Origin: an uncultured Chloroflexia bacterium
Lineage (GTDB): Bacteria; Chloroflexota; Limnocylindria; Limnocylindrales; CSP1-4
Direction: 5' to 3'
NCBI GenBank assembly: GCA_963720825.1
Contig: CAVRGY010000002.1
Location: forward strand, 31,672 to 95,671
DNA length: 64,000 bases
Position 1 is the stretch's first letter. Each line of letters starts with the position of its first letter. Shown piece by piece: positions 12,275 to 55,517 of the stretch. The position numbers and the translations under genes are program-made. The notes under the pieces were generated by a model. The model worked only from the letters and a program-made list of their open reading frames with translations, was not told the DNA's origin and did no database searches.

Positions 12275-12312
12275 GCGCGGGCGACCCGGGCCCGGACGCG
12301 GGCGATCGGGGC

Positions 12313-13032: not shown

Positions 13033-13048
13033 TCGGATACCGTGAACG

Positions 13049-13945: not shown

Positions 13946-13980
13946 CACGTCACCGACGGACGCCGACGGATGCGCGCGTC

Positions 13981-25736: not shown

Positions 25737-26061
25737 CAAACGTTCTTCGGGTACGACGCCGACGGGCGCCTGGAAGTCCCGCGAGGCTCAAGCCTGATGG
25801 CGAATAGGTATCGAATAGGTACCGGCCCGCAACGCCCGAAGTTGGTGGGCCGAAGGCCCCATTGCGTCCGCCGGTCCCGGCCGAATCCTGCGTGATTAGA
25901 CCGACGGTCGCCTCTCAACGGGGGCGGATCGGTCGCCTGGACTGGGGAGGACGCGGCGATCGTCCGAAGCTCGTCGGCTTCCGTCGAGATGCACCGGATC
26001 CGGTCGTGCCCGTCATCCCTGCCTTGCCCAGGTCGCGCTGGCCAATGGGAGGGAAATCGCG

Positions 26062-27036
26062 ATGGCACGGCACGTGCGTCGGGTGGCCGGTGTGGCTTCC
26101 CGCATGGCCCTGAGAATTGTCCGGATCGCACACGGTGCAATCACGCTGGTGCTGCCGGTTGTGCTTGTGGCGGGCCTGGCGCTTGTCCGGGCTGGCGGAA
26201 TCAGCGCCGGCTCCGCCAGCGGGCCTGCCCTCAACGCCGGCGCTCAGCAGTCCGGACTCTCCGCCCGCGCCCAGCTGGACCGCGGCGCGACCCAGATGAC
26301 GGCGTCGCTGTCGTCTGGCTTCGATTTCACGGTGGTCGCCCGCTCGACGCTGTACGCGAAGCCCGACGGTCCGAAGATCGAGGTGCCCGACCCAGCCGAT
26401 CCGTACACGGTTGCCGGCGTCGCCGACAGCTACGACCTCGGCGCAACGGCCGCCATCGGCACCGTCAAGGGGGAGGACTTCTTCCTTCAGCTGTACGACG
26501 GCCCGACGGACCCCGGAAAGCCGGTCGACCTGGCGACGCTTGCGCCCTCGCTCGCGGCCCTGGTGCGCGACGGCCACACCTGGCGCAACGACGGCGACGG
26601 GTGGTATGTGACCGATCAGCCGCCCGGCATCGGGCTCGACCCGCGCACCGCCGCGCTGCTGCCCGCGATGCTGCGCAACACGACCGCGGCGAAGGATGCG
26701 CCTGCGACGCTCCTCGCCGGTCAGCAGCTGCCGACCGTGGCAGCGGCCGCCGCCGTCGCCGACGCACCCGGGTTGATGGCGATCGATGCGGCCCCGTTCA
26801 CCGTGTTCGCGCAGCCGCTCTCGTTCGCGTTCGATGCCAGCGGCCGGCTGGCCCAGCTGACGGCGACCATGCGCAACACGCGGATGGCCGACTTCGACCT
26901 CATCGTGGTGACCACGATCACCTTCGACTACGACCATCTCAGCGCGTTCCCGGACGCCTCGCCCACGGCGCCACCACCACCGACGCTGGCGCCGGATCCG
27001 ATCGGTGCGGTCGGGCAGCCGGAGGCCTCGCGATGA
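26062..27036 (+). CDS. Membrane-anchored hypothetical protein. Its stop overlaps the RHS start (ATGA).
   Basis: N-terminal TM segment AITLVLPVVLVAGLALV. GC3-biased frame. A GGAGG RBS for the downstream RHS gene lies in its 3' end. Confidence 0.5.
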   Translation: MARHVRRVAGVASRMALRIVRIAHGAITLVLPVVLVAGLALVRAGGISAGSASGPALNAGAQQSGLSARAQLDRGATQMTASLSSGFDFTVVARSTLYAKPDGPKIEVPDPADPYTVAGVADSYDLGATAAIGTVKGEDFFLQLYDGPTDPGKPVDLATLAPSLAALVRDGHTWRNDGDGWYVTDQPPGIGLDPRTAALLPAMLRNTTAAKDAPATLLAGQQLPTVAAAAAVADAPGLMAIDAAPFTVFAQPLSFAFDASGRLAQLTATMRNTRMADFDLIVVTTITFDYDHLSAFPDASPTAPPPPTLAPDPIGAVGQPEASR

Positions 27037-32678: not shown

Positions 32679-33111
32679 TCCAGAGATCACCGCCGCCTGG
32701 ATTGCGGCCGCGGTACGCCGTTGCTTCAGCTTTCTCGAGCGTGATCACAAATACCGCTGGGACGGGTCCACGGCGGACGGGAGGAAGGTCGTCGCGCATT
32801 TCTCCCGACCAGGTTCACAGGTAACTGTTCTGTGGGACGACTGGGAGGGAATGCTCGAAGCGTCGCTCGCTCTGTCAGAGGACTCGGGCACTCGGATTGT
32901 GGACGTGAAGAATCTCCTTTTCGTTCTCGGGCTTGAGCCAACCCAGCGAGGCCCGATCGACGTCCGGAGCCAGAGCGAGATCGACGGCGCAATGCGACTG
33001 ATGGCAGCTGGCCTCGCGGTTGGCCTGGGACCGATATTGGGGGGCGACAGGTCAGCGCTGAGGCAGATCGAGGACTTCGTGGAGGCGGTCGATCCAGGCG
33101 GCATCCGGTGA
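32671..33111 (+). CDS. Candidate cognate immunity protein (146 aa, overlaps the toxin stop by 8 nt).
   Basis: Small ORF translationally coupled to the toxin C-terminus, with lowered GC. Placement is typical of RHS/CDI immunity genes. No recognisable family. Confidence 0.45.
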   Translation: MADPEITAAWIAAAVRRCFSFLERDHKYRWDGSTADGRKVVAHFSRPGSQVTVLWDDWEGMLEASLALSEDSGTRIVDVKNLLFVLGLEPTQRGPIDVRSQSEIDGAMRLMAAGLAVGLGPILGGDRSALRQIEDFVEAVDPGGIR

Positions 33112-33288
33112 AGGGCGATGCCGAGTCGTCGGTTGAGCGCTCGACAATCCGTTGGCACGAGGTGTTGGTTCTATCGGGGCCCGCCGTCGTGGGTGCCCTG
33201 GTCTTGGCACCCACGAAACATCGCCTCTACATCGTCGAGTGCCCGGCTAAGTCGCATCGCGAGGATCTAGTCGCCGCAAATACCGTGA

Positions 33289-33569
33289 TTGGGCCCCGTA
33301 CTTGCCGAGACGTCCGACGCGCTCGGAAATGCCACCACCTACGAGTACGACGCGAACGGCAACCGTGCCTCGAAGACCGACGGCACCGGGACGACGAGCT
33401 ATGCGCGCGACGAGCAGAACCGGCTGACCTCGGTGACCACGCCGGGCCCGGTCACGGTCGGCTACCGCTACGACCTAGACGGCAACCGACGCCGGCTCAT
33501 CTATCCCGACGCCACCGCGGTCGACTACACCTTCGACAAGGCGGACCGGATGGCGTCGCTCAAGAATTC
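33289..33569 (+). pseudogene. RHS (YD-repeat) gene remnant, truncated by the IS3-family insertion.
   Basis: TYEYDANGNRASKTDGTGTTSYARDEQNRLTSVT…YRYDLDGNRRRL…YTFDKADRMASL. Internal YD repeats. The frame runs straight into the IS inverted repeat at 33570. Confidence 0.5.
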
Positions 33570-33599
33570 TTGGACACTTACGGGCTCGGATAGGTGTGA

Positions 33600-34537
33600 T
33601 ACGGGATGCGCCAGGTAGGCCGTGATCGGGGTCGCGAAGTCGAGCGCTTGTGGGGCCGGATCCCGTTGTACAGCTGGCGGAATGCCTCGACCTCGTCGAC
33701 GAGCGCGATCACGTCCGGGATCTCGAGACGGTAGAGGTGCTCGTACTTGAGGGTCTGGTAGAACGCTCGACGACGCGTTGGTCTCGGGCGCGTGGTAGAG
33801 GTTCCGCACGTGGGCGAGCTCCGGCAGACTGGCGATGAAGTGGAGGAAGTCCGAGCTCTTGTACGCGGGACCGTTGTCGGTCACGATGGTCACGGGCTCG
33901 ATCTCGCCGTCTCGTGATCGATGCAGTCCTGGAGGAGGGGATGACCCAGGAGCGTTCGGCGAGCGGCGATTGCGGCCTCGACCGCAGCGATGGCGTAGCG
34001 GGCGCCGGTGGTGCCGCTGACGGGGATCCCGAGGCAACAGCTTGGTCGCGTAGTCGACGACCGGCGCCAGCCGCCAGGTCCCGTGGCGGCTGGTCTCGAA
34101 CTCGGTGAAGTCGGTCTGCCACACGCGGTAGCGGCGTGTAGGCGCCTCGACGAACAGGGCCCGGCGCGCGACCGCGAGCTGCCGTCGTTCGGCCTGGTAG
34201 CGCACGGGCAGGAGCAGATTGCGCCGCGCCAGCGCCCGCAGCACCGAGCTGCGCGACACCGCGCACGCCGTCCGCGCGCAGCATCGCCCAGATCTTGCGG
34301 TGGCCCCATGCTGACCAGCGATACGCCTGCTCGGCCGCACCGGGTCTCGATCGCGTCGACGACCGGGGCCGGCCAGCGGCGAACCGACCGCCCGTGCAGG
34401 TAGCGCAGCCCGCCAGTGGTACCAGGTGGAGCTCGGGATGCCCAAGGCGGGCGAGGAACCGGCGGACCGGGACCGCTCTCTCGGCCCTCAGCTGCTCGAG
34501 CTCTTCGTACGCGGGTAGAGCGCCCCCTTTTTTCGCC
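33600..34537 (-). pseudogene. IS3-family transposase OrfB (rve integrase core), disrupted by at least four frameshifts.
   Basis: Segments (GHRKIWAMLRADGV; RRYRVWQTDFTEFETSRHGTWRLAPVVDYATKLL; IVTDNGPAYKSSDF; PETN…; RPHQALDFATP) follow the correct IS3 OrfB order but alternate among three frames. Confidence 0.6.
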
Positions 34538-34814
34538 ACACGCGGAGCTCCACGTAGGCTTCCCCGAGCGCGGACGTCAGGTCGTCGACCTGGTCCGCGA
34601 GCTCCGTCTCGCGTCTCGAGGCGAGGGAGACCGCGTTGTCGCCCCGGGCGAGGCTCTCTCGGCCGCCTTCGAGGAACTGCTTCTGCCACTTGGCGATCGT
34701 GGTCTGGCTCATCCCGAGCCGACGCGCCACCTCGACCTGGGTGCCCTCTCCCTTGAGCACCGAGAGCACGATGGCGAGCTTCTCGTCGGGCGTCTTGAAC
34801 GGCTTGCGGCCCAC
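34488..34814 (-). CDS. IS3-family transposase OrfA (helix-turn-helix).
   Basis: MGRKPFKTPDEKLAIVLSVLKGEGTQVEVARRLGMSQTTIAKWQKQF… Ends at the AAAAAAG slippery heptamer. Confidence 0.75.
   Translation of the reverse strand: MGRKPFKTPDEKLAIVLSVLKGEGTQVEVARRLGMSQTTIAKWQKQFLEGGRESLARGDNAVSLASRRETELADQVDDLTSALGEAYVELRVWRKKGALYPRTKSSSS
34527..34533 (-). promoter_or_regulatory. Programmed -1 ribosomal frameshift heptamer A AAA AAG of the IS3 element.
   Basis: Minus-strand sequence cgAAAAAAGggggcg at the orfA/orfB junction. Confidence 0.6.
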
Positions 34815-43521: not shown

Positions 43522-45375
43522 CTACGCCGGCGCCGTCTCCAGCGGTGCGTCCAGCCCGTCGAGCCGACGCACGCCCGGCACCGTCCGGACCAGGAACTCG
43601 AGCACGATCCGCGTCTGGCGGACACGTTCCTCGATGTCGTACGACGCATGTCCGGTCGCGTACGTGTACACCTGCGGCTCGACGCCGCGCGCTCGGAGCC
43701 GCTCGACGTAGTTCCACACCTGGCGGATCGGGCAACGGCTGTCATTCTCGCCCGCGAGGATCAGCAGTGGTGCGCGGACATCGTCGGCATACGTGATCGG
43801 ATTGCGCTCCACGAACAGGTCCGGTGCCGTCTCGGGTGAACCGCCGAACAGTGCCCGGTCGAGCGCCTGCAGGGTCGGAGCCTCGTCCTCGTAGGCCGCG
43901 ATGTAGTCGGCCACCGGGACGCCGCCGATTCCCGCGACCCAGCGCTCCGGGTGGCGGCCCATGCCCAGCAGCGTGACGTACCCGCCCCATGACCAGCCGG
44001 CGAGCACCGCTCGAGACGGGTCCGCGAGGCCCCGGTCGACGAGGTCATCGAGCCCGGCAAGGACGTCCTCGAGCTCGAGGAAGCCGACGTTGCCGACGAG
44101 CGCGTCGCGCCACGCGCCGCCGAACCCCTCGGATCCACGGTAGTTGACCATGGCGACCAGGAAGCCCGCGTCCACGTGTGCCTGGATGTCGGGTGCCCAG
44201 CGGTCCATGTCGGTGGATTGCGGGCCACCGTGCACGCGCATCATCACGGGGTGCGGCCCGGGGCCGTCGGGCTGGACGAGGAAGCCGTGCACGCGCTGCC
44301 CGGCGGGATTGCCGAACCACCAGGACTCGAACGGGCGGCCGGCCGGCGCCGGGGTTCCATCGGCGACGAGCAGCGGCGTCGGCGAGCCCACCGCCAGCAG
44401 CATCGCCGGATGCTCGCCGGCATGGACGCGATACCACACGGACCCGTCGGGCCGGACGGCCGCGGCGGTGATCGAGCCCAGCACCGTGTCGAGGGTCTGG
44501 ACGCGACCGCCGGCCAGGTCGTACCGATGGAGGCGGTGGCGGCCCTCGACCAGCTGTTGCAGCAGGAGCGCCGAGCCATCCGGCCACCAGCCGACCGGCT
44601 CAACCGGCCCCTCGAGGTCGATCTCGAGGTCGATGACGTCGCCGCTGTCCGTGTCCCACAGGGCCGGCCGGCGATCGCCGGTCCGCTCGTGCGTGATGGC
44701 GATGCGCCGGTCGCCGGGCACGGGCGAGAAGCCGAACCCCGCGAGCTCGAGCCCCGGATCCCGCAGATCGCGGACGGTCTCGCCGGTGTCGGCGTCGATC
44801 GCCCGCAGCGATGGATGCAGGACGTCGCCGTCCTCCATGATCTCGAGCACGACGACCGCGTCGTCGGCCGACAGGGCGTTGCGATCCACCGACGCGATCA
44901 CGCCCCAGCCTCCGGCCAGCCGGACCGGCTGCCGGTGGGCGTGGATCCGGCGCGCAGCCGAGCCGTTGGCCGCGGTCCACACCGAGAACCCGTCGATCGA
45001 GCTGATCACGGCGACCGAGCGCGTCCGGCCGATCGCGAGGCCCTCGGACCAGGCCTTGGGCAGCCCTTCGATCAACGGTTCCGGCGCGACGTCCTCGTCG
45101 AACGGGGCGATGACGAACGTGCCCGTCTCGTCGCCCGTGTCGTCACGGAACCAGATGACCCCCGTGCCATCGCGGGTCGGCCGGCCCTCGGTGACCCCGA
45201 CGGGGTCGCGGGTGACCTGGCGGCGACGGCCGGTGGCCCGGTCCCAGGCGTGGAGCTGGTAGCTCCCGCTCTCGGTGGAGGCGACGACGATCCTGTCGGG
45301 TGCCTCCGCTGACCATGACGGAAAGGACAGGACGGGCGCGCGGAAACGGCGCTCCCACAACGGAAGGTTCGACAT
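43522..45375 (-). CDS. S9 family serine peptidase (prolyl oligopeptidase / dipeptidyl aminopeptidase-like).
   Basis: GWSWGGYVTLLGMG nucleophile elbow, with Asp/His in the C-terminal alpha/beta hydrolase part. N-terminal propeller. Confidence 0.75.
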   Translation of the reverse strand: MSNLPLWERRFRAPVLSFPSWSAEAPDRIVVASTESGSYQLHAWDRATGRRRQVTRDPVGVTEGRPTRDGTGVIWFRDDTGDETGTFVIAPFDEDVAPEPLIEGLPKAWSEGLAIGRTRSVAVISSIDGFSVWTAANGSAARRIHAHRQPVRLAGGWGVIASVDRNALSADDAVVVLEIMEDGDVLHPSLRAIDADTGETVRDLRDPGLELAGFGFSPVPGDRRIAITHERTGDRRPALWDTDSGDVIDLEIDLEGPVEPVGWWPDGSALLLQQLVEGRHRLHRYDLAGGRVQTLDTVLGSITAAAVRPDGSVWYRVHAGEHPAMLLAVGSPTPLLVADGTPAPAGRPFESWWFGNPAGQRVHGFLVQPDGPGPHPVMMRVHGGPQSTDMDRWAPDIQAHVDAGFLVAMVNYRGSEGFGGAWRDALVGNVGFLELEDVLAGLDDLVDRGLADPSRAVLAGWSWGGYVTLLGMGRHPERWVAGIGGVPVADYIAAYEDEAPTLQALDRALFGGSPETAPDLFVERNPITYADDVRAPLLILAGENDSRCPIRQVWNYVERLRARGVEPQVYTYATGHASYDIEERVRQTRIVLEFLVRTVPGVRRLDGLDAPLETAPA

Positions 45376-45413
45376 TGGGGCAGGGTATCGCGCGGAGGCG
45401 TGCGTCGTTCGGG

Positions 45414-45854
45414 TCATCGACCCATGACGCTGCGCGCCCAACGCAGCAGCCGCGCGGACGGGAGCGCATCGAGCTCGCCGAACGGGATCCACGCCGCCAT
45501 GTCGGAAGATCCGTCGGCCTCATGGCGTATCTCGCCGTCGTCGACGCTCGCCCGGTACACGATCCCGACCGCGTGGATCCGGTCACCGCTCGGGGTCTCC
45601 CCGGGCTCGAGCACCACGGACCGGACCGCGACGAGGCTGCCGACCCTGGCGGTCAAGCCGGTCTCCTCGGTCACCTCGCGGACGACGCCTTCGACCGGGT
45701 CCTCCCCGAACTCGAGCCCGCCGCCGGGCAGCGTCCACCCGCCGGCTCCCGGCGTCCCCGCGGCGACGCGGACCAGGAGCACCCGCCCGGCGTCCTCGAT
45801 CCACGCGTAGGCGGCCAGGCGGACGCGCCGGGGGACCCCGTCGTCCGAGGTCAT
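45414..45854 (-). CDS. NUDIX hydrolase. Its start overlaps the stop of the upstream BMC-P gene.
   Basis: Nudix box GGGLEFGEDPVEGVVREVTEETGL. Confidence 0.75.
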   Translation of the reverse strand: MTSDDGVPRRVRLAAYAWIEDAGRVLLVRVAAGTPGAGGWTLPGGGLEFGEDPVEGVVREVTEETGLTARVGSLVAVRSVVLEPGETPSGDRIHAVGIVYRASVDDGEIRHEADGSSDMAAWIPFGELDALPSARLLRWARSVMGR

Positions 45855-46198
45855 CTCGCCGCGCGGCGGCGTGCGGGTCGAGCCCGCTTGCGCGGCGGCT
45901 GTGCCGCCGTCGACGCATCGGCCGCCGGCCGCGCGAGCTCCACGGCGTCGACGATGCCCACGACCAGCGTCCGGACCGGCGCGTCTCTCGCGTCCAGGAT
46001 CTGGCGTGCGGAGTTCCCCTCGTCCATGAGCAGCACCGTCTCGCCCGGGCCGGCACCCACGGTGTCCACGGCGATCAGGTACCCGCCGGCATCGGCGCCT
46101 TCGGGATCGAGCAGGTCGCACAGGAGCAGCTTGCGGCCGTTGAAGACCGGGACGTTGATCGTCGATGTCACCGTTGCGACCACTCGGGCGAGCTTCAT
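45851..46198 (-). CDS. BMC vertex (pentamer) protein of the EutN/CcmL/PduN family, with a basic Arg-rich C-terminal tail.
   Basis: MKLARVVATVTSTINVPVFNGRKLLLCDLLD…YLIAVDTVGAGPGETVLLMDEGNSARQ…VGIVDAV, then PPRKRARPARRRAAR. Confidence 0.8.
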   Translation of the reverse strand: MKLARVVATVTSTINVPVFNGRKLLLCDLLDPEGADAGGYLIAVDTVGAGPGETVLLMDEGNSARQILDARDAPVRTLVVGIVDAVELARPAADASTAAQPPRKRARPARRRAAR

Positions 46199-46497
46199 CG
46201 CGCGCGCTTCCCGCGTGGAATGCGCTCCCCGTCGGTCGCGACCGCGTCCACGATGCCCACGATCGCATGGTCCACGGGCACGAACGGCTCGTCCAGGGCG
46301 AGCGACGCCTCGCGCGCGGCGACGATGTACACGAGCTCTCCGGGTCCGGCCATCCGGACGGCGTCCGCGGCGACGACCGGCGATCCCTCGGGCTGCTGCC
46401 GGCGATCGAGCGGCTGGACGATCAGCAGCGGCACCCCCTCGAGCCCGGGCGACTTGGTCGACGCCACGACGGTGCCGATGACCCGCGCGAGCTGCAT
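46195..46497 (-). CDS. BMC vertex (pentamer) protein, EutN/CcmL/PduN family.
   Basis: MQLARVIGTVVASTKSPGLEGVPLLIVQPLD…VVAADAVRMAGPGELVYIVAAREAS…IVGIVDAV. Confidence 0.8.
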   Translation of the reverse strand: MQLARVIGTVVASTKSPGLEGVPLLIVQPLDRRQQPEGSPVVAADAVRMAGPGELVYIVAAREASLALDEPFVPVDHAIVGIVDAVATDGERIPRGKRAR

Positions 46498-46498
46498 C

Positions 46499-47089
46499 TC
46501 AGCCGTCCTCGCGGCGCGCGATCCGGTCGCGGAACCGGGAGTCTGCCTCGAGGTTGACACGCATCTCGCCATGCAGCTGGGGGATCACCCGCGAGATCGA
46601 GCGCGCCGCGGCGCCGATCCGGTCCCGGCCCAGCTCGACCGCCGCCTCGACATCGGCGACGCCGCCGCCGAACAGCAGGTATGCCTTGCCGCCGATACCG
46701 TCGGCGAGGCGCAGCTCGAGCAGCCGGACCCGCGCGCCCTTCACCCCGGCGTCGGCCGCATCGATGATCGCGGCCACGGTCTGGGTCTCGATGATGCCCA
46801 GGGCCTCGCCCGTCGACGCGCGCCGGGTGCCGCGGATCGCGGCCACGACCTGGGGGTGGACGTCCGCGAGCAGGACGACATCGAGGATCGACGGGCCGCC
46901 CACGGCGCGTCCTGCCTCGAGCGCCTCCTCGACGTCGGCGACCGCCCCGCCCACGAGCACCAGGTACTTGCCCGGATGGACGGTCCCGGCGTAGATGACG
47001 TCGATGGGGGAGCGCTTGGCCATCGCATCGCCGGTCTCGATCCCGACCGCGATCGAGTCGAGCTCGAGCAGGGCGATGGCCGGCTGCAT
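46499..47089 (-). CDS. BMC-T shell protein with two tandem canonical BMC (PF00936-type) domains.
   Basis: Domain 1 AIALLELDSIAVGIETGDAMAKRSPIDVIYAG…LVLVGGAVADVEEALEAG. Domain 2 ALGIIETQTVAAIIDAADAGVKGARVRLLEL…GGGVADVEAAVELG. Confidence 0.75.
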   Translation of the reverse strand: MQPAIALLELDSIAVGIETGDAMAKRSPIDVIYAGTVHPGKYLVLVGGAVADVEEALEAGRAVGGPSILDVVLLADVHPQVVAAIRGTRRASTGEALGIIETQTVAAIIDAADAGVKGARVRLLELRLADGIGGKAYLLFGGGVADVEAAVELGRDRIGAAARSISRVIPQLHGEMRVNLEADSRFRDRIARREDG

Positions 47090-47091
47090 GG

Positions 47092-48552
47092 TCAGACGAT
47101 CCGGAGCGCGCCGACGACGGTGATCCGCCGCTCGCGCGAGAACGTGCGCGGCCGGGTCAGGCCATCGCCGGTGGGGGAGGCGATCGAGAACGACGAGAAC
47201 CCCTCGCCGCCCTCGCCCAGCCCCGCGAAGTTGGGTCCGTTGGCCACGAAGATGCTGCAGTTCATCGCCCGCGCCATGCGCGTGATCGTGTCCACGTTGG
47301 TCGAGTGGATCGAGGCGGTATGGCGGAACCCGTGCTCGGCGCGGACCGCGAGGTCGATCGCCTGGTCGACGGTCCCGACCCGAACCACGGGCAGCACCGG
47401 CATCATCTGCTCGGTCCACACCAGGCTGTGATCCCGCGGCACCTCCGCGATCAGCAGCCGCGGCTCCGGCTCCACGCTGACCCCGATCTCGGCCAGGATC
47501 TTCGCCGCGTCGCGGCCGATCCAGGCGGGGTTGATCACGCCGGGCTTGCCCGGCTCGCCGAGCTCCCGGAAGATCACCCGCTCCAGGCGCCGGAGCTCGT
47601 GCTCCTTGAGCAGGTAGGCGCCGTTCTGGGTCATCGACCGGATCAGCCGGTCCGCGACCGAATCGACGACCATCACCACCTTCTCGTCGGTGCAGATGAT
47701 GTTGTTGTCGAACGACGCGCCGCGCACGATGTCGCGGCCCGCCCGCTCGACGTCCGCGGTCTGGTCGACCACCGCGGGCGGATTGCCCGGCCCCGCCGTG
47801 ATCGCCCGCTTGTCGGTTCGGAGCGCCTCGCGGACGACGCCCGGGCCGCCGGTGACCAGCAGCACCCGGACGCCGGGGTGGCTCATCAGCGCCCGGGCGC
47901 TGTCGATCGTCGGCTCCACGATCGCGGTGACGAGGTCGGCCGGGCCACCGGCGCCGACAATCGCTCGGTTGATCAGGCGGATCGTCTCGGCCGAGCTGCG
48001 CTTGGCATTGGGGTGGGCGTTGAACACCACGGCGTTGCCGGCGGACACGATGCTGATCGTGTTGTTGATCACCGTCGAGGTCGGGTTCGTGACCGGCGTG
48101 ATCGCGGCCACGACGCCGAACGGAGCCCACTCGGTGACCATCATGCCCAGGCTGCCGGATACCGCCTCGACCTCGAGGTCCTCGGGGCCGGCCGCCTTCA
48201 TCGTCACCAGGCGGTTCTTGACGACCTTGTCCTCGTACCGCCCGAGGTGCGTCTCCTGGTGGGCCATCCGGGCCAGCTGCTCGGCGTGGTCGAGCATCGA
48301 CTGGCGGATGGCCTCGATGATCACGCGCCGCCCGTCGAGACCCATCGACTGGAATGCGCGGAACGCGCCGGTGGCCGCCGCGACGGCGTCGTCGATCGTG
48401 GCGTGGATGCCGTCGCCCAGCTCCGTGGGCGCGGCGGCCAGCTCGGCCTCGGCGCGCAGCGCCGTGCCCAACCGGCCATCGGAGGCGGCGTCGATCCGCC
48501 GCCTGACGCGCTCGATGATGTCCTGGATGTCGCGCTCGCTGAGATCGCTCAT
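47092..48552 (-). CDS. CoA-acylating aldehyde dehydrogenase (PduP/EutE-like) with an N-terminal amphipathic encapsulation-peptide-like helix.
   Basis: AldDH fold with …ITPVTNPTSTVINN…, catalytic region …NIICTDEKV… and the C-terminus GEGGEGFSSFSIASPTGDGLT typical of BMC acylating AldDHs. N-terminal DIQDIIERVRRRI helix. Confidence 0.85.
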   Translation of the reverse strand: MSDLSERDIQDIIERVRRRIDAASDGRLGTALRAEAELAAAPTELGDGIHATIDDAVAAATGAFRAFQSMGLDGRRVIIEAIRQSMLDHAEQLARMAHQETHLGRYEDKVVKNRLVTMKAAGPEDLEVEAVSGSLGMMVTEWAPFGVVAAITPVTNPTSTVINNTISIVSAGNAVVFNAHPNAKRSSAETIRLINRAIVGAGGPADLVTAIVEPTIDSARALMSHPGVRVLLVTGGPGVVREALRTDKRAITAGPGNPPAVVDQTADVERAGRDIVRGASFDNNIICTDEKVVMVVDSVADRLIRSMTQNGAYLLKEHELRRLERVIFRELGEPGKPGVINPAWIGRDAAKILAEIGVSVEPEPRLLIAEVPRDHSLVWTEQMMPVLPVVRVGTVDQAIDLAVRAEHGFRHTASIHSTNVDTITRMARAMNCSIFVANGPNFAGLGEGGEGFSSFSIASPTGDGLTRPRTFSRERRITVVGALRIV

Positions 48553-48555
48553 CGG

Positions 48556-48843
48556 CTACTTCCGGTAAACCTCACGACCGCCGACCTCCCAGGTGTCGAC
48601 GATCGCCATGATCACGGCGTCGCACGGACGATCCTTCGTCATCTCGGTCTGGCGAGCGGAGCTGCCCGTCGCGTACAGGACGACCTCGCCCACACCGGCG
48701 CCCACGGCGTCTGCAGCGACGACGTAGCCGCCGCCCTCGTGGTTGTCGGTATCGAGCTGGCGCACGAGGAGCAACGCCCAGCCCTCGATCAGCGGTTCCT
48801 TGCGGCTGGAGACGACCGTTCCGGCCACCCGTCCAAGGAGCAT
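48556..48843 (-). CDS. BMC vertex (pentamer) protein, EutN/PduN family.
   Basis: [31 protein letters not shown]…[25 protein letters not shown]…VIMAIVD. Confidence 0.8.
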
Positions 48844-48901
48844 GGCTTCCTCCCGGGTCCGGGCCGCGATCGCGCTGCGACCGCGGCCCCTGGTGCGAAC
48901 G

Positions 48902-49210
48902 TCAGTCGTCGCCCTTCTCGCCCTTGGCCTGCTCGGCACGACCGAGCGGGAGCACGAGGTCCACGTTGCTGTGCGGCCGCGCGATGACGTGGCTGGTGAC
49001 CACCTCGCCGACCTTGGCGGCCGCCCGGACGCCGGCCTCGACGGCGGCCTTGACCGCCGCGACGTCGCCGCGCACGACCGCGGTCACGTAGCCGCCGCCG
49101 GTCTTCTCGTAGCTGACGAGCTCGACCTTGGCCGCCTTGACCATCGCGTCGGCCGCCTCGACCATCGCGGCGAACCCGCGGGCCTCGATCATGCCCAGTG
49201 CTTCAGCCAT
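48902..49210 (-). CDS. BMC-H hexameric shell protein (PduA/EutM-like).
   Basis: [78 protein letters not shown]. Canonical BMC-H. Confidence 0.9.
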
Positions 49211-49255
49211 CGATCCTCTCCTTCGTCGTTGTCATTGCCGTGTGGGTGGTGGGTG

Positions 49256-49885
49256 TCAGCTCTTGGCCTCGCGACCGTCGAGGCCCTCGATCGAGGCCAG
49301 CGCCGCGCGCCAGCCGACGTCGATGTCCCGCTCCTCGCCGCCGAGGTAGATCCGGCCCATCGAGCCGAACGTGCGGACCTCGAGGATGTTGATGTGGGCC
49401 GCCTTCTCCGCCTCGTTGGCCGCCAGGGCCGCGTAGGCCGCGGGCTCGAGCTCGAGCACGTACAGCGTCTCGCCCGGGATCAGCATCTGGCCGTGCCGGG
49501 TGCGGTTGATGAGCTGTGCCTGGTGGTCATCGATGCGGCGGATGATCTGGCTGGACAGGATCCGGGGCTTGATCCGGTCCTTCTCCTCGAGGCCGATCTC
49601 GCGCAGGATCGCCGCGCCGGCCGCCCGGACCTCCGCCTGCGAGGGCGAGTGGACCTCGAGCATGCCGTAGTAGCGCTCGATGATCTGCATCCCCGGCTTG
49701 ACCGAGGTGGACTTGAGGGCGATGTCCGTCAGGCGGTTGATCTCGATGCCGGGCGACACCTCGATCGACAGCGACGCGTCGCCGGCCAGCGGCAGGAACC
49801 CCTGCGCGACGGTCCCCAGGAACGCGGCGTACTGCGCCTGGAGGCTGTCGAGGAAGACATAGGCGCGAAGGTCAATATTGCTCAC
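49256..49885 (-). CDS. BMC-T shell protein of the permuted tandem type (EutL/PduB-like).
   Basis: 209 aa with two halves resembling permuted BMC domains (…[27 protein letters not shown]…GMLEVHS…; …[42 protein letters not shown]). Assignment is by pattern similarity to EutL. Confidence 0.5.
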
Positions 49886-50738
49886 GCGCTCCCCTCTCTC
49901 CTGTGACGATCTTGACGCCGGCGGAAGCCCCGATCCGGGTGGCGCCGGCGGCGATCATGTCCTGGACATCCTCGGCGGTGCGGATCCCGCCCGAGGCCTT
50001 GACGCCCATCCGCGAGCCCACGGCCTCGCGCATGAGAGCGACGTCGAACACGGTCGCGCCACCCGATGCGTAGCCCGTCGAGGTCTTGACGAAGTCGGCC
50101 TTGGCCTCCTTCGCGAGGTGGCACGCGACGACCTTCTCCTCGTCGGTGAGGAGCGCGGTCTCGATGATCACCTTGTTCAGGGCGCCCGACTCGTGGCACG
50201 CGTCCGAGACGCGATCGATGTCCTCGCGGACGGTGTCCAGCATGCCGCTCTTGAGCGCCCCGATGTTGATCACCATGTCGATCTCGCGCGCGCCGTCGCG
50301 GATGGCCCGGCGCGCCTCCATGGCCTTGACCTCGGTCGTCGCGGCGCCGAACGGGAAGCCGATCACCGAGGCGACCGCGACATCGGTCCCGCGCACGTTG
50401 TCCGCGGCGCGTCGGATCCAGGTGGGGTTGATGCACACCGCCGCGAAGTGGTGCTCGACCGCCTCGGCGCACAGCCGGTCGATGTCGGCGGCGGTGGCGT
50501 CGGGGCGGAGCAGGGTGTGGTCGATGTACCCGGCGAGGTCCAGCGGCACGTCGCTGCCCCGCCCGTGGTACGCGATCCGGGTGGCGCCGTTGGTCACGAC
50601 GTCGCGGACCTTGTCCGCGCAATGCGCGGCGCACGACCCGCCGCAGTTGATGCACGTCTCGCCGCCCAGCGAGAACGTCGCCAGCACCTCCCGGGTGATC
50701 GTCTCGATCAGCAGGTCCCGGTCATCGATCGTCGTCAT
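49872..50738 (-). CDS. deoC: Deoxyribose-phosphate aldolase (DERA/DeoC) with a ~60-aa N-terminal extension containing an amphipathic helix and a C-x2-C-x3-C-x3-C motif.
   Basis: Core …[11 protein letters not shown]…AAVCINP…, Schiff-base lysine context FVKTSTGY, …KASGGIRT… Extension [43 protein letters not shown] overlaps the rpiB stop. Confidence 0.85.
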
Positions 50739-51358
50739 CGCGTCCCAACCCCGGTGCCGTCCTTCAGGTAGTGCCGCTCGATGGCGGTGATCTTGTCCAC
50801 GCGCGCCGCGTGGCGACCCGGTCCCCAGGGCGTGGCCAGCCACTCGGTCACGATGTCCAGCGCAAGCCCGGCGCCGGTGAGCCGCGCCCCCAGCGTGAGC
50901 ACGTTGGCGTGATTGTGCTCGCGGCTGTTGCGTGCCGTTGACAGGTCGTGGCACATCGCGGCGCGGACGCCGGGCACCTTGTTGGCGGCCATGCACGAGC
51001 CGATGCCGGCGCCGTCGACCACGATCCCGACGGCGCAGGTGCCGTCGGCGACCAGCTTCGCCACGGCCAGCGCGAGATCCGGGTAGTCGACGGCATCCTC
51101 GCTGCCCGTGCCGCAGTCGTGGACCACGTGGCCGCGCTCGGCGAGCGCCTGCCGGAGCTGCTCCTTGAGCCGGTACCCGCCGTGGTCCGCGCCGATGGCG
51201 ATGGAGGGGGGACCCTGCCCGTCGGGGGCACCGGCATCGATGTGCGCGGCAGCCGTCGTCACGGTCGCCGTGGCAGCGGGCACGTACACGGCGTCGACGA
51301 TGCGGCGGACTACGTCCCGGACGTCCTGCTCGGTGGGGCGGACCCGCAGCTCAGCCAT
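50735..51358 (-). CDS. rpiB: Ribose-5-phosphate isomerase B (RpiB/LacAB family) with a ~50-aa N-terminal extension carrying an amphipathic helix.
   Basis: Core [16 protein letters not shown]…[12 protein letters not shown]…[24 protein letters not shown]…HNHANVL. Extension [31 protein letters not shown]. Confidence 0.8.
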
Positions 51359-52377
51359 GCGCAGCCAGCCAGTCCGCGGTGCCTTCGTCGGTGATCAGCG
51401 TGTTCACGCAGCCGGCCCGGATGGCGGCGAGCGCGATGGGCCCGCGCCCGGGTCCGGCGGCGAGCCCGATGGTATGGTCCTTGGTCGCGAGCTCCGCGAG
51501 CGGCAGGCCGACCGTGCGCTGGTCGAGGTCCGGCAGTGCGATGCGGCCTTCGGGGGTGACGAACCGGCCCAGGATGTCGCCCACGGCTCCGGCCTCGCGC
51601 AGGAGCTTCCGGTCCGCGGGCGCCACGAACCCGGACTCGACGAGGACGCTGCCGGGCTCCGGGATGCCGAGGCTGAACACGGCGAACGGGGCGCGCCGGG
51701 CGGCTTCCAGCGTGTCGCCCACGGACGGGTCCGCCTCGAGCGCGACCCGCAGCGCGGCGGACCCCACGATCGCCGGCGCGGGCATCAGCCGGATCGATCC
51801 GCCGCTGGTGACCCCGAACCGGTCCACGATCTCGCCGGCACGGGTCGGGGTCGCCGAGCGGGACGTCGCCCCGTTGAGCTGGACGATCTCGGTGGCGGTC
51901 GTCCAGCCCGGCTCGAGGGCACGGGACAGCTCGAGCATCGTCCGGCCCCACGACACGCCGATCGCGCCCGTCGGCCGGATCTCGGCGAGATAGCGCGGCG
52001 GCAGCCCTCGCGACCGCCTCTCGCGCGACGGCGGTCGCGGCGTCGGCCGAACCCTCCGCGGTGCCCGGACCGGCGCCTGCGTCGGCGACGATCGCCGCAC
52101 GCAGCCCGAAGCGGGCGACCAGCTGTTCCTCGACCTCGACCAGCCGGGCGGCGGGGTGGACGATCTCGATCCGTACGATCGATTCGCGGACGGCCCGGTC
52201 GAGCAGCCGGCCGACCTTGAACCGGCTGAGGCCGAGGCGAGCCCCGATCTCCTCCTGGGTCAGCGCCATGCCGTAGTACATCCGCGCGACGCGGACGAGG
52301 AGCCGCGGATCCGAGGTGCCACGAACCGGGGCAGCGGCGGTCGTCACACGCGCTCCGGATTGCTCATGTGCGTACAT
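51310..52377 (-). CDS. SorC/DeoR-family sugar-binding transcriptional regulator. Apparent frame break near 51960-51995 between the HTH part and the sugar-binding part.
   Basis: N-terminal HTH (…[37 protein letters not shown]…). The SorC-type sugar-binding domain ([26 protein letters not shown]…IVQLNGA…) continues in the adjacent frame (ORF 51351..52100). Confidence 0.7.
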
Positions 52378-52420
52378 TCATGCTCATATGTGCAGATCGC
52401 ATGCTAGGCGTGGCCGGGAC
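52361..52420. promoter_or_regulatory. Divergent promoter region between the SorC regulator and the PfkB kinase, with direct repeats TGCTCATgTGC…TGCTCATaTGTGC and CATGC half-sites. Candidate operator.
   Basis: Read directly. The local GC dip and the repeats sit inside a 145-bp intergenic gap. Confidence 0.35.
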
Positions 52421-52522
52421 CGGTGTCAACCCGGGATTGCGATGGCGCAGCGGGAATCGCGGCAGCAACGGGCTGCGCCTCGCGGGTTGGCGAGGCCCGC
52501 TGCGAGGCAGTAGCCTCCCGAC

Positions 52523-53488
52523 ATGACCAGCCAGGGAACGTCCGGCGAACCCGCGGTGATCGTGGTCGCGGGCGAGGCGCTGATCGACCTCATCGTGCTC
52601 CCGGACGGGCGGCTGGTCCCGGCACCCGGTGGCGGGCCGTACAACACCGCCAGGGCCATCGCCCGCCTGGAGGTCCCGGTGGCCTGGATCGGCGGGCTGT
52701 CGTCGGATCGCTTCGGGCGGATGCTCGAGGCCGGGCTCGTCCGCGACGGCGTGTCGCTCGACCTCGTGCAGCGAACCGACCTGCCGACGACGCTCGCCCT
52801 GGCCGAGCTCGACGAGGACGGCGTCGCCGCGTACCGGTTCTACGTCGATGGGACGTCCGCGCCGGCCGTGGTGACCGGGCCCTTCGAAGGCGGGCTGCCG
52901 GCGGGGACGCGGGCCGTTCACGTGGGCACGCTCGGGCTCGTGCTCGAGCCGATGGCCGCAACGCTGGAATCGCTGGTCGCGATGCTTCCCGATGACGTGA
53001 CCCTCATGGTCGACCCCAACTGCCGGCCGTCGATCACCACCGATCCGGACGCCTACCGGGCGCGGGTGGCGCGCGTGCTGGAGCGGACCGACGTGGTCAA
53101 GGTCAGCGCCGACGACCTCGCCTGGCTGTACCCGGGCGTCCCGCTGTCCGAGGCCGTCGCGCGGCTGGCCGGCGACCGCGACCGCGTCGTCCTGCTCACC
53201 GACGGCGGCCGCTCGGTCACGGTGCACGCCGGGGGCGCGAACCACACGATGCCGGTCCCGTCGGTGCGGGTCGTCGACACGGTGGGTGCGGGCGATACCT
53301 TCGGCGGCGCGTTCCTCGCAGCAATCGTCCGCGCCGGGCTGGGGCGGGCTGACCTGCATGTTGCCGGGGCGGTGCTCGACGCGGTGCGGTTCGCGATCCG
53401 CGCCTCAGCGATGGCCTGCGAGCGCGCCGGCGCCGACCCGCCGACGCTGGCCGAGCTCGGCGGATGGCCGGTGGGCGGCTCCGGGTAG
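52523..53488 (+). CDS. PfkB-family carbohydrate kinase (ribokinase / fructokinase / deoxyribokinase-like).
   Basis: N-terminal GG motif (…VAGEALIDLI…GGGPYNTA), C-terminal anion hole VVDTVGAGDTFGGAFLAA. Confidence 0.8.
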   Translation: MTSQGTSGEPAVIVVAGEALIDLIVLPDGRLVPAPGGGPYNTARAIARLEVPVAWIGGLSSDRFGRMLEAGLVRDGVSLDLVQRTDLPTTLALAELDEDGVAAYRFYVDGTSAPAVVTGPFEGGLPAGTRAVHVGTLGLVLEPMAATLESLVAMLPDDVTLMVDPNCRPSITTDPDAYRARVARVLERTDVVKVSADDLAWLYPGVPLSEAVARLAGDRDRVVLLTDGGRSVTVHAGGANHTMPVPSVRVVDTVGAGDTFGGAFLAAIVRAGLGRADLHVAGAVLDAVRFAIRASAMACERAGADPPTLAELGGWPVGGSG

Positions 53489-53588
53489 CCGGTCCAACAG
53501 CGGGCGCAGACGCGGGCCGGCGCTACCGGTCCGTCGGCCCGGCGGCGAGCGGCCGGTCCGGCGCTTGCGCGGCGCCTAGACTTCGCGC

Positions 53589-54485
53589 GTGGACCCGCTC
53601 GCCCTCGCCTTCATCGCGCTGGCGGCGGTGCTCCACGCCGCGTGGAACGTGCTGCTCAAGACCGCCGACGACCCGCTGTGGACCGCGACGGTCGGGCTCG
53701 TCGCGGTCTCCGTGGTGCTCGTGCCCGCGGTCGCGATCGGGTGGCTGGTCCTGGGGCGGCCCGCGATCCCGACCGACGCGTGGCTGCTCGGCGTGGCCTC
53801 GGGCGGGGTCGAGGTGGTGTACTTCCTGTTCCTCGCGGCGGCCTACCGTCGCGGCGACCTGTCGCTCGTGTACCCGCTCGCGCGCGGCAGCGCGCCGCTG
53901 CTCGCGATCGTGCTGGGTCTCGGGGTCCTGGGCGAGCGACTGGCGCCCGGGGCAATCCTCGGCGTCGCGCTCCTGGTCGCGAGCCTGCTCATCGTCCAGC
54001 GGCCGTGGCGCCTGCTGCGCGCGGCAGAGGCGCGCGACGATCGATCCGCGGCCGGGTTCGCGCTGCTCACGGGCGCGATGATCGCCTCGTACTCGGCCAT
54101 CGATCGCGTCGGCGTCCAGCTCGTGCCACCGTGGCTGTATGCGGGGATCCTGTGGCCGACATGCGCGATCGGCCTTGGCCTGATCGCCGTCGTCCGGGCC
54201 CGGCGCGGCGATGTCCCCATCGCGACGATGGGGGTCATGGCAGCCCGCCGGCGCGCGGTGTCGGCGGGCGTGCTCACGGTCGCCGCGTACGGGCTGGTCC
54301 TGGCGGCGCTGCGGCGCGCGCCGCTGGCGGTGGTTGCCCCGCTCCGCGAGTCGGCCGTGCTGCTCGCCACCACCTGGGGGGTGGTCCGGCTGCGAGAGGC
54401 CCGGGACCCCGGCGAGGTGTCCCGCCGGATCGTCGGGGCTATGCTGGTCCTCGCGGGAGCCGGCGTGCTCGCCATCGCCCGCTGA
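53589..54485 (+). CDS. EamA/DMT-family transporter.
   Basis: Ten predicted TM helices in two EamA halves. Hydrophobic throughout. Confidence 0.65.
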   Translation: MDPLALAFIALAAVLHAAWNVLLKTADDPLWTATVGLVAVSVVLVPAVAIGWLVLGRPAIPTDAWLLGVASGGVEVVYFLFLAAAYRRGDLSLVYPLARGSAPLLAIVLGLGVLGERLAPGAILGVALLVASLLIVQRPWRLLRAAEARDDRSAAGFALLTGAMIASYSAIDRVGVQLVPPWLYAGILWPTCAIGLGLIAVVRARRGDVPIATMGVMAARRRAVSAGVLTVAAYGLVLAALRRAPLAVVAPLRESAVLLATTWGVVRLREARDPGEVSRRIVGAMLVLAGAGVLAIAR

Positions 54486-54512: not shown

Positions 54513-55517
54513 ATGCCCCGACTGACCCTCGGCTACAAGGCGTCCGCAGAGCAGTTCCCGCCCCGCCGCCTGCTCGACCTCGCGGTGGCGGCCGAGGCCG
54601 CAGGGTTCGACTCCGTCTGGACCAGCGACCACTTCCAGCCCTGGCGCCACACCGACGGTCATGCCCCCAACGCCCTGGTCTGGCTGGGCGCCGCGACCCA
54701 GGTGACGCAGCGGGTGACGCTGGGCACGAGCGTGCTCACCCCGTCCTTCCGGTACAACCCGGCCATCGTGGCCCAGGCGTTCGCCACCCTGGCCTGCCTC
54801 GCCCCCGGCCGGGTGATCCTGGGCGTGGGCACGGGCGAGTCGATGAACGAGGTCCCGGTGGGCGTGGACTGGCCCGAGCAGAAGGAGCGGTTCGCGCGTC
54901 TCAAGGAGGCGGTGACCCTCATCGGCCGGCTGTGGCGCGAGGAGTTCGTCGACTTCAGCGGTGAGTTCTTCCGCACCCACGAGGCGACCGTCTACGACCG
55001 CCCGGACACCCCCGTGCCGATCTACATCGCGGCCTCGGGTCCGGCCGCGGCGAGGCTGGCCGGGCGGATCGCGGACGGGTTCATCTGCACCAGCGGCAAG
55101 GGTGCCGAGCTGTACACCGACACCCTGCTGCCGGCGCTCGCCGAGGGGGCCGCGAAGGTGGGCCGGGACGCCGCGGCGATGGACCGGATGATCGAGATGA
55201 AGGTCAGCTTCGACCCCGATCGTTCGCGGGCGATGGAGGACACCAAGGAGTGGTCGGCGCTGGCGCTGCCGGGCGAGATGAAGGTCGGCGTCCACGACCC
55301 GCGCCAGATGGAGATCCTCGCCAAGCACGCCGAGCCCTACGCGCACACCCGCTGGCTCGTGTCCGACGATCCCGACGAGCACGTCGATCAGATCGCCCCG
55401 TACCTCTCCTACGGGCTCAACCACCTCGTGTTCCACTTCCCGGGCAACGACCAGGAGACGGCCATCGCGCGCTACGGGAAGGTCATCCTGCCGAGGCTTC
55501 GCGAGCGCTTCGGCTGA
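54513..55517 (+). CDS. fgd: F420-dependent glucose-6-phosphate dehydrogenase-like (luciferase-like monooxygenase family) oxidoreductase.
   Basis: LGYKASAEQFPPRRLLDLAVAAEAAGFDSVWTSDHFQPWRH…LGTSVLTPSFRYNPAIVAQAFATLACLAPGRVILGVGTGE…GFICTSGKG…GLNHLVFH. Close to mycobacterial Fgd1 throughout. Confidence 0.8.
   Translation: MPRLTLGYKASAEQFPPRRLLDLAVAAEAAGFDSVWTSDHFQPWRHTDGHAPNALVWLGAATQVTQRVTLGTSVLTPSFRYNPAIVAQAFATLACLAPGRVILGVGTGESMNEVPVGVDWPEQKERFARLKEAVTLIGRLWREEFVDFSGEFFRTHEATVYDRPDTPVPIYIAASGPAAARLAGRIADGFICTSGKGAELYTDTLLPALAEGAAKVGRDAAAMDRMIEMKVSFDPDRSRAMEDTKEWSALALPGEMKVGVHDPRQMEILAKHAEPYAHTRWLVSDDPDEHVDQIAPYLSYGLNHLVFHFPGNDQETAIARYGKVILPRLRERFG

Follow-up and report, generated by a model that had tools for sequence, protein, structure and literature searches.

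A 64,000-nt stretch of contig CAVRGY010000002.1 (assembly GCA_963720825.1; positions 31,672-95,671, forward strand), called the window throughout, carries an operon for a bacterial microcompartment (BMC) in which six shell genes accompany a deoxyribose-phosphate aldolase (DERA), a CoA-acylating aldehyde dehydrogenase (AldDH), and a protein resembling the ribose-5-phosphate isomerase (RPI) RpiB. Measured against the written description of the class and against gene order in related genomes, the locus appears to be a canonical and complete operon of the catalogued SPU3 subtype of sugar-phosphate-utilization (SPU) loci, and we consider it likely that the metabolosome it would encode works broadly as has been proposed for such compartments. 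SPU compartments rank with the most widespread of metabolosomes, and the bacteria of soils and sediments are thought to use them to live on DNA debris. The window provides one more clean example of SPU3, with an identifiable promoter and a candidate operator, and leaves knowledge of the class unchanged; its ten-gene core (regulator, RpiB-like protein, DERA, six shell genes, and AldDH) spans ~6.5 kb and is compact enough to synthesize.

SPU loci were named in 2014 (PMC4207490), and by 2021 they numbered >280, in 26 phyla and seven subtypes (PMC8217296). The enzymes of SPU3 are limited to an AldDH, a pfam01791 DERA, and a pfam02502 RPI, with N-terminal encapsulation peptides; its shell comprises one BMC-H, a BMC-P triplet, a BMC-Tdp of the CcmP clade, and a BMC-Ts that has neither a PduS partner nor a pore cysteine; phosphotransacylase (PTAC) is absent; and its hosts include Actinobacteria, Chloroflexi, Acidobacteria, and Calditrichaeota (Sutter 2021, Supplementary Data 2). 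SPU3 loci were also curated by Dwyer 2024 (PMC11585597). In the window, proteins scoring above the gathering cut-offs of PF00936 and PF03319 lie together with the enzymes within 7 kb, as in a BMC locus of any type. The DERA has a BMC-specific extension and the AldDH reaches 618 bits on PRK15398, as in SPU loci generally, while the RpiB-like protein combines the SPU-wide traits of an Asp (Asp115) and an N-terminal extension (52 aa) that holds its strongest amphipathic segment. The features particular to SPU3 are likewise present: three divergent PF03319 genes, a CcmP-like BMC-Tdp, a BMC-Ts with zero cysteines and no PF01512/PduS-like protein among the ~57 proteins of the window, and, within the 64 kb, an enzyme set that has no PTAC and whose AldDH bears a helix resembling an N-terminal encapsulation peptide. 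A preliminary description of this DNA, made from its letters alone, had placed the locus in the SPU type on account of its DERA, AldDH, RpiB, and shell genes, and this placement holds. The same description had seen a distinct variant in the three pentamers and the absence of PduL and alcohol dehydrogenase; since the published SPU3 definition matches feature for feature, these traits are the norm, and the gene order recurs in many genomes.

Since the window has a GC content of ~72%, long spurious open reading frames (ORFs) are frequent, and reading frames were picked by third-position GC and start-codon context. Third-position GC and the ORF tables confirmed the eleven co-directional genes originally proposed, which lie on the minus strand from 52377 down to 45414 in the order regulator, RpiB-like, DERA, BMC-T, BMC-H, BMC-P1, AldDH, BMC-T, BMC-P2, BMC-P3, and NUDIX (Table 1). 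Of their ten junctions, five are overlaps (8, 4, 14, 4, and 4 nt); three others leave a spacing of 1-3 nt, and at the remaining two the genes stand 45 and 58 nt apart. The gene of an S9 peptidase of the prolyl-oligopeptidase family (45417..43522) overlaps that of the NUDIX hydrolase by ATGA, so that the chain extends to 12 genes. Thus, of the earlier claim of a complete operon at 45414-53488, the gene set stands, and the edge at 45414 is arbitrary because the overlapping chain runs on into the S9 peptidase as its twelfth member. No intrinsic terminator was found within 45200-53700. When the ~57 window proteins were scanned for further BMC-related genes, members of PF06130 (PTAC), PF01515 (Pta), PF00465 (iron-containing alcohol dehydrogenase), and PF01512 (PduS) were absent, and there was no additional or satellite shell gene.

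To place the locus among its relatives, we used the DERA to scan species-representative genomes, which yielded 590 confirmed relatives, and 80 loci were kept for comparison. The best DERA relatives were 70-79% identical and occurred in metagenome-assembled genomes of uncultured Chloroflexia/Chloroflexota and Acidimicrobiia. Of the 80 loci, at least 17, each from a species-level genome, share the order RpiB-DERA-Tdp-H-P1-AldDH-Ts-P2-P3, with hosts in Chloroflexota, Acidimicrobiia, Thermoanaerobaculia, and other Acidobacteriota; some of these loci also have the same regulator upstream. A second organism of the same metagenome (locus L084) showed an identical architecture. About 25 further loci have the gene order of another subtype, SPU6, and their AldDH is only 30-36% identical to that of the window.

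All three cargo proteins begin with N-terminal extensions that have no counterpart in solved homologues (RpiB ~52, DERA ~67, and AldDH ~45 residues). The extensions show the encapsulation-peptide features, including an amphipathic helix, that have been described for SPU enzymes. In the RpiB-like protein the extension consists of an amphipathic helix, a putative encapsulation peptide, followed by a linker, and the hydrophobic moment of the whole protein peaks at residues 6-20. Alignment to the RpiB structure 3PH3 places Asp115 opposite the catalytic Cys (givvDgaG versus giv-iCgtG), with His148 and the remainder of the fold kept. All SPU RPIs have an Asp in place of the catalytic Cys (C66 in E. 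coli) together with an N-terminal encapsulation peptide; in SPU6, the RPI was inactive on ribose-5-phosphate (R5P), the DERA was active on 2-deoxyribose-5-phosphate (dR5P), and the two formed a 1:1 complex (PMC11585597). By analogy, the RpiB-like protein of the window is probably a DERA-binding scaffold or partner for core packaging and not an isomerase. The initial listing of RpiB as a pathway enzyme is not borne out, given the Asp at the catalytic Cys position and the inactivity of the sole SPU RPI assayed.

The DERA is the signature enzyme of the locus. It scored 283 bits on the DeoC equivalog model TIGR00126 (cut-off 117), also matched PF01791, and retains the catalytic residues D154, K218, and K247 (motifs EID154, FVK218TS, and GVK247AS). 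Its alignment to the DERA structure 8QPS (7e-77) runs from residue 66 onwards, and alignments to solved DERAs in general begin at residues 57-72. The ~67-aa extension that precedes them, a helix with a C-x2-C-x3-C-x3-C motif behind it (residues 29-40), is kept in relatives, and an N-terminal extension has been described for all SPU DERAs (PMC11585597). The four cysteines (Cys29, 32, 36, and 40) are encoded at 50654-50619 of the window, and comparable motifs, differing in their spacing, are present in the majority of SPU3 and SPU6 DERAs and missing from some (L008, L010, and L012). The motif, which is not discussed in the SPU literature cited here, may form a Zn or Fe-S knuckle. The AldDH aligned with the BMC-associated acylating AldDH 5JFL (7e-128) from query residue 17 and retains the catalytic Cys287 (FDNNIIC). 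Its residues 7-21 have the top hydrophobic moment of the protein and its catalytic domain begins after residue ~45; the N-terminal amphipathic helix is a putative encapsulation peptide.

Pfam and NCBIfam profile searches bore out the proposed shell of one BMC-H, two BMC-T, and three BMC-P. When each shell protein and enzyme was checked with hidden Markov models (HMMs), curated thresholds were passed throughout except by the 209-aa BMC-T on the Pfam BMC model (19.4 versus a cut-off of 24.5 bits). This protein just reaches the NCBIfam CcmP cut-off (340.6 versus 340 bits), and its best solved match is CcmP 4HT5 (1e-86), well ahead of CsoS1D (4e-51); other matches were Haliangium ochraceum BMC-T3 (1e-71) and BMC-T2 (8e-68). 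It had been described as permuted and EutL-like, whereas no EutL or PduB match was found among NCBIfam models (E <= 0.01) or Protein Data Bank (PDB) chains (E <= 0.001), and it belongs instead to the CcmP/CsoS1D type. Since CcmP matches and no EutL or PduB chain does, the protein is by homology a CcmP-type double-stacking BMC-Tdp with a predicted gated pore. It contains an E70-R71 pair and is 94-95% identical to its counterparts in the closest relatives. We take this Glu-Arg pair to be the pore gate. The 196-aa BMC-Ts, a single-layer tandem shell protein, has PduT (3N79, 3e-39) as its best solved relative and aligned with H. ochraceum T1 at 3e-27. Its HPGK lies opposite the (C/S)PGK of PduT, so that His38 occupies the position of the Fe-S ligand Cys38, and the whole protein is devoid of cysteine. 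For BMC-H, the main hexamer of the shell, the nearest solved chain is H. ochraceum HO-5815 (1.8e-41). The three BMC-P paralogues are 38-46% identical to one another and 77-93% identical to their positional orthologues in L084; BMC-P2, for example, shares 38-46% identity with P1 and P3, yet 77% with its L084 orthologue. BMC-P1 orthologues in syntenic loci are 67-93% identical.

The scheme put forward at the outset, in which DERA produces acetaldehyde that is subsequently turned into acetyl-CoA, coincides with the published model of the class (PMC8217296, PMC11585597), from which, together with the chemistry of the enzyme families, the following steps were derived. 2-Deoxyribose-5-phosphate arising from the breakdown of (deoxy)nucleosides or DNA would relieve a DeoR-type repressor and enter the shell. 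There, DERA, scaffolded by the RpiB-like protein for core packaging, would split it into acetaldehyde and glyceraldehyde-3-phosphate, the latter leaving for glycolysis. The shell would hold the volatile, toxic acetaldehyde until AldDH, with CoA and NAD+, converts it to acetyl-CoA and NADH. Facets would be built of BMC-H and vertices of the three BMC-P, and BMC-Tdp would provide a large gated pore. Because no PTAC, alcohol dehydrogenase, or PduS/MNdh is encoded, acetyl-CoA/CoA and NADH/NAD+ would have to cross the shell, most plausibly via the BMC-Tdp pore; SPU subtypes that have no PTAC do have a Tdp, through which acetyl-CoA could exit (PMC11585597).

The regulator at the head of the operon combines a helix-turn-helix (HTH) domain with a PF04198 Sugar-bind domain (135 bits), and its C-terminal part matched the Bacillus-type repressor DeoR best among NCBIfam models (130 bits); its true start is probably a GTG at 52347. 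The early designation as a SorC regulator is thus sound as to the DeoR/SorC family, with the qualification that the gene is frameshifted in the window, where a 1-nt indel near 51993 breaks it into two frames. The regulator is in frame in six relatives, in L083 (331 aa), and in L084 (325 aa). Sequence look-ups with BMC-H and Tdp led to two ENA metagenome contigs that are ~98% identical to the window (ERZ25039533 contig_22861 and ERZ25039483 contig_65687), which are labeled L082 and L083; an exact-sequence look-up with AldDH gave no match. The L082 regulator is split at the same site, with G as the inserted base where the window has C, and L083 has no insertion. Other 1-nt indels also differ by contig, breaking AldDH and Ts in L082 and PfkB and RpiB in L083. 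In the window itself at least four further genes are split (those of an ABC ATPase, PstS, ProRS, and the CHAD protein), with frame breaks at ~57143, 18741-18814, 8394-8572, and 21927-22114. Since near-identical contigs carry different gene-breaking indels and the window has other split genes, the frameshift is most likely an error of long-read assembly. True pseudogenization of the regulator was set aside because the indels differ among the three ~98%-identical contigs.

Just upstream of the regulator lies a promoter-like site (Table 1), the sole sigma-70-like site in 45200-53700 against 0.2 expected, and its TTGACA is unchanged upstream in six related loci. It is followed by two direct repeats (CACATGAGC), both of which are kept in position in L001, L002, L005, L006, L011, and L033, and which form a candidate DeoR/SorC operator. 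The conservation of TTGACA and the repeats in six relatives suggests that the operon is auto-regulated under DeoR-type control, a role that the regulator would be predicted to have from these sites.

Three neighboring genes call for separate treatment. The NUDIX start overlaps the P3 stop (ATGA), the protein has neither an N-terminal extension nor an encapsulation peptide, and profile searches assigned it no specific subfamily or substrate class. Its place after P3 is peculiar to the species of the window (the two 98%-identical contigs), and no other syntenic locus has a NUDIX gene downstream of P3. In L084, orthologues of the NUDIX hydrolase (46% identity) and the S9 peptidase (55%) lie 2-5 kb off on the opposite strand. 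Since these orthologues sit apart on the other strand, the NUDIX hydrolase and S9 peptidase are best read as a separate neighboring unit and probably not as a BMC component. In L084 this pair occupies 11154-14278, with a YhhN gene between its members, and in the window 43522-45854; both genomes also have a second S9/tricorn-like peptidase and a fragment of a DNA ligase flanking the BMC operon. A role for the NUDIX hydrolase as supplier of ribose or deoxyribose phosphates was considered and rejected, as no subfamily could be assigned and synteny ties the gene to the S9 peptidase. The divergent PfkB-family kinase had fructokinase as its best NCBIfam match (122 bits, far under the cut-off of 450), is not ribokinase-like over its full length, and had no tblastn match in the 80 related loci or L084. 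It was likewise dismissed as a deoxyribokinase, since the HMMs favor a fructokinase-like protein (below cut-off) and it is missing from relatives. Neither the NUDIX nor the PfkB gene is kept beside related loci, and their inclusion as parts of the system in the preliminary description does not hold.

Several observations weigh against the SPU3 interpretation or its proposed mechanism. The N-terminal helix of DERA is no outlier by hydrophobic moment; the best 15-mer of its extension (residues 41-55) ranks 18th of 273 within the whole protein. A frameshift splits the regulator in the window, and if this were real, regulation would differ. The deoxynucleoside-catabolic genes deoA, deoB, and deoD are all missing from the 64-kb window, the substrate is suggested by family membership only, and both the shells and the enclosure of the enzymes are predicted here from the genes. 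An alternative that we regard as unlikely is that the same organelle handles another, rarer sugar phosphate, or uses DERA for condensation, with the RpiB-like protein as a real isomerase. The gene of the RpiB-like protein is kept beside that of DERA, some SPU3 loci having the two as a fusion, its His148 and fold are conserved, and the CcmP-like pore suggests traffic of larger sugar phosphates; moreover, RpiB of M. tuberculosis works with Glu for Cys, and other substrates have been left open (PMC11585597). However, the aldolase is a DeoC equivalog by a wide score and complete in its catalytic residues, the regulator resembles the DeoR repressor, and the activities assayed in SPU6 (DERA on dR5P but not RPI on R5P; PMC11585597) favor the deoxyribose-phosphate scheme. 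The names of the best shell models (CcmP, CcmL, EutM, EutN, and PduT) might instead evoke a carboxysome or an ethanolamine (EUT) or propanediol (PDU) metabolosome. Yet all of them except CcmP, which is barely at its cut-off, fall under curated cut-offs, the window encodes no RuBisCO, carbonic anhydrase, CcmM/N, EutBC, or PduCDE, and the signature enzyme DERA is unique to SPU loci (PMC11585597). We give such an identity practically no credence, gene content having already refuted it.

Two further readings turn on the margins of the SPU3 operon. In one, the locus would represent a separate SPU variant, its compartment fed by the NUDIX hydrolase and possibly by PfkB, e.g., with (deoxy)ribose phosphates from nucleotide-sugars or ADP-ribose. 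The tight coupling of NUDIX to P3, kept in the two 98%-identical contigs, is what commends it, and since the BMC catalogue lists a NUDIX HMM for EUT1 only and not for SPU, the association would be new. We consider it very unlikely, however, because the NUDIX gene is coupled in the same way to the S9 peptidase (ATGA at 45417), is missing after P3 in other syntenic loci, and forms a separate unit in L084; its product has no targeting extension and no assignable substrate class, PfkB is fructokinase-like and missing in related loci, and the remaining traits said to be distinct are the usual ones of SPU3. In the other, the regulator would be a true pseudogene in a decaying or deregulated locus, leaving the operon constitutive or being lost. 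The 1-nt insertion near 51993 and the split at the same site in the independent contig L082 would fit such decay, but the inserted base differs (C versus G), L083 is intact, scattered indels are the signature of error-prone long-read assembly, and the ten downstream genes are intact with strong third-position GC, making decay highly improbable. An SPU3 metabolosome remains the reading that we prefer.

Two of the three pentamers carry basic C-terminal tails. That of P3 (31 aa; window 45851-45946) is Ala/Pro-rich and ends in PPRKRARPARRRAAR, and that of P2 (16 aa; window 46195-46245) is likewise Ala/Pro-rich and ends in …ERIPRGKRAR; both close with Arg/Lys clusters. In P3, PF03319 spans residues 1-84 and solved pentamers align to residues 1-90 only. 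Orthologues of the closest clade have tails on P2 or P3, never on P1. Tailed pentamers also occur in L002, L003, L004, L005, L006, L007, L011, L033, and L084. A search for P3 homologues gave 1489 matches at E <= 1e-10, whose 120 best cluster representatives were examined for tails. In 105 of these 120 the tail measured at least 15 aa (15-69 aa), and 94 of the 105 had a net charge of at least +3. Arg accounted for 4% of the first 12 tail residues and 37% of the last 12. Overall, tail Arg was 19%, compared with 18% in a random six-frame translation of the window. Since random translation of this GC-rich sequence already yields 18% Arg, only the positional pattern of Arg and its recurrence across homologues would argue for selection on the tails.

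The C-terminus of BMC-P lies on the shell exterior, as is known from the pull-down of H. ochraceum shells by C-terminally tagged BMC-P. Because the pentamer C-terminus faces outward, the tails could tether the organelle to DNA or RNA, from which its substrate derives, or else to polyphosphate or the nucleoid. That the vertices of bacterial SPU3 shells carry polyanion-binding tails is, by analogy, a tentative proposal that we hold to be possible but somewhat doubtful. The analogy is with Asgard archaea, whose pentamer tails (36-137 aa) have been shown to bind DNA and RNA and were termed "not observed in BMCs" (PMC12747264). The tails of the window, described here from their sequence, are shorter at 16 and 31 aa. 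The bacterial data suggest otherwise than that statement. Basic vertex tails would bear both on contact between organelle and substrate and on whether the Asgard shells are as unique as claimed; if the proposal is true, pentamer tails would be a widespread bacterial trait and not an archaeal innovation.

Table 1. Genes and regulatory features of the SPU3 locus and its immediate neighbors (window positions)
Feature	Position	Strand	Remarks
PfkB-family sugar kinase	52523..53488	+	PF00294 113 bits; divergent from regulator
Promoter-like site	52401..52429	-	-35 TTGACA 52429-52424, 17-nt spacer, -10 TAGCAT 52406-52401
Direct repeats CACA(T)ATGAGC (CACATGAGC)	52392-52382 and 52370-52362	-	20 bp apart
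DeoR/SorC regulator	51351..52377	-	split over two frames; HTH and PF04198
RpiB-like	50735..51358	-	207 aa; PF02502 177 bits
DERA	49872..50738	-	288 aa; TIGR00126 283 bits
BMC-Tdp, CcmP-like	49256..49885	-	209 aa; NCBIfam CcmP 340.6 bits
BMC-H	48902..49210	-	102 aa; PF00936 103 bits
BMC-P1	48556..48843	-	95 aa; PF03319 98 bits; no tail
AldDH, CoA-acylating	47092..48552	-	486 aa; PRK15398 618 bits
BMC-Ts, PduT-like	46499..47089	-	196 aa; PF00936 twice, 110 bits
BMC-P2	46195..46497	-	100 aa; PF03319 89 bits; short basic C-terminal tail
BMC-P3	45851..46198	-	115 aa; PF03319 86 bits; 31-aa C-terminal tail
NUDIX hydrolase	45414..45854	-	146 aa; PF00293 70 bits

Elsewhere in the window, 20-40 kb from the BMC operon, a dense phosphate-economy cluster (5277-25615) encodes a PhoU-like protein, a PHO4 transporter, a PhoR/PhoP-like two-component system, an endonuclease/exonuclease/phosphatase protein, and a GDPD protein, together with pstSCAB-phoU, Ppx/GppA, a CYTH-CHAD protein, and polyphosphate kinase. 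A gene for an F420-dependent glucose-6-phosphate dehydrogenase at 54513-55517 (TIGR03554, 438 bits, above cut-off) adjoins those of an EamA transporter and an MFS transporter weakly similar to nucleoside:H+ symporters, and hints at an F420-using host, which could be an actinobacterium or perhaps belong to Chloroflexota. A protein of ~2000-2200 aa with RHS repeats and DUF6531, of the polymorphic-toxin type, is encoded within 25989-34814; it is followed by a stretch of lower GC (63.5% in the 32-34 kb bin) and, at 34488-34814, by an HTH gene of a transposase family.

Among known systems, the dra-nupC-pdp operon of Bacillus subtilis accomplishes cytosolic deoxyribose catabolism with a DeoC-type aldolase under a PF04198-domain repressor of the DeoR/SorC family. 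To our knowledge, the Bacillus system has no shell, encapsulation peptides, or dedicated acylating AldDH. In turn, its nucleoside transporter and phosphorylase genes are missing from the window. A beta-carboxysome does not fit either, as the window has no RuBisCO or carbonic anhydrase and its shell proteins fall far short of the cut-offs of the CcmL and CcmO models. The shell of H. ochraceum, the structural model system (PDB 5V74, 5DJB, 5V76, and 5DIH), gave the closest solved match for BMC-H and further matches for BMC-Tdp (T3 and T2) and BMC-Ts (T1); it also has a BMC-P triplet, and the encapsulation peptide of its AldDH is N-terminal (PMC8217296); it differs in having two Tdp paralogues and a main locus that lacks DERA and RPI (PMC8217296).

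SPU loci had been thought to include no experimentally characterized member, which is no longer so: the DERA and RPI of SPU6 have been expressed, assayed, and complexed (PMC11585597), and a 2025 preprint described SPU-type shells of Asgard archaea that were assembled and their encapsulation peptides tested (PMC12747264). No account of the imaging or physiological testing of a native SPU organelle in a bacterium was found in the literature. The Asgard loci of Hodarchaeales share with the window a core of DERA and AldDH, a BMC-P triplet, a BMC-Ts, and, on one paralogue of the pentamer, a disordered C-terminal tail rich in Lys and Arg (PMC12747264). They differ by adding a PTAC, MNdh/PduS, and a flavoprotein-DERA fusion, and by having a BMC-Ts with the CPGK Fe-S motif, two BMC-H, and no Tdp (PMC12747264). 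SPU6, from Anaerolineae/Chloroflexi, is the only SPU subtype with characterized enzymes (Dwyer, Sutter & Kerfeld 2024, PMC11585597). Like the window, it has adjoining RPI and DERA genes, a DERA extended by ~70 aa at its N-terminus, an RPI that bears an encapsulation peptide and the Cys-to-Asp replacement, a BMC-P triplet, and a BMC-Tdp. However, its order is P1-AldDH-H-Tdp-P2-P3, it has no BMC-Ts, its Tdp is of the blue clade, its regulator is of the GntR type, and its AldDH, 30-36% identical to that of the window, belongs to the other AldDH trunk and has a C-terminal encapsulation peptide. Compared with catalogued SPU3 loci, the window adds a NUDIX gene abutting the last pentamer gene, probably incidentally, and encodes RPI and DERA separately, while 12-20 SPU3 loci have them as a fusion. 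The host groups of SPU3 are the same groups that hold the window's closest loci.

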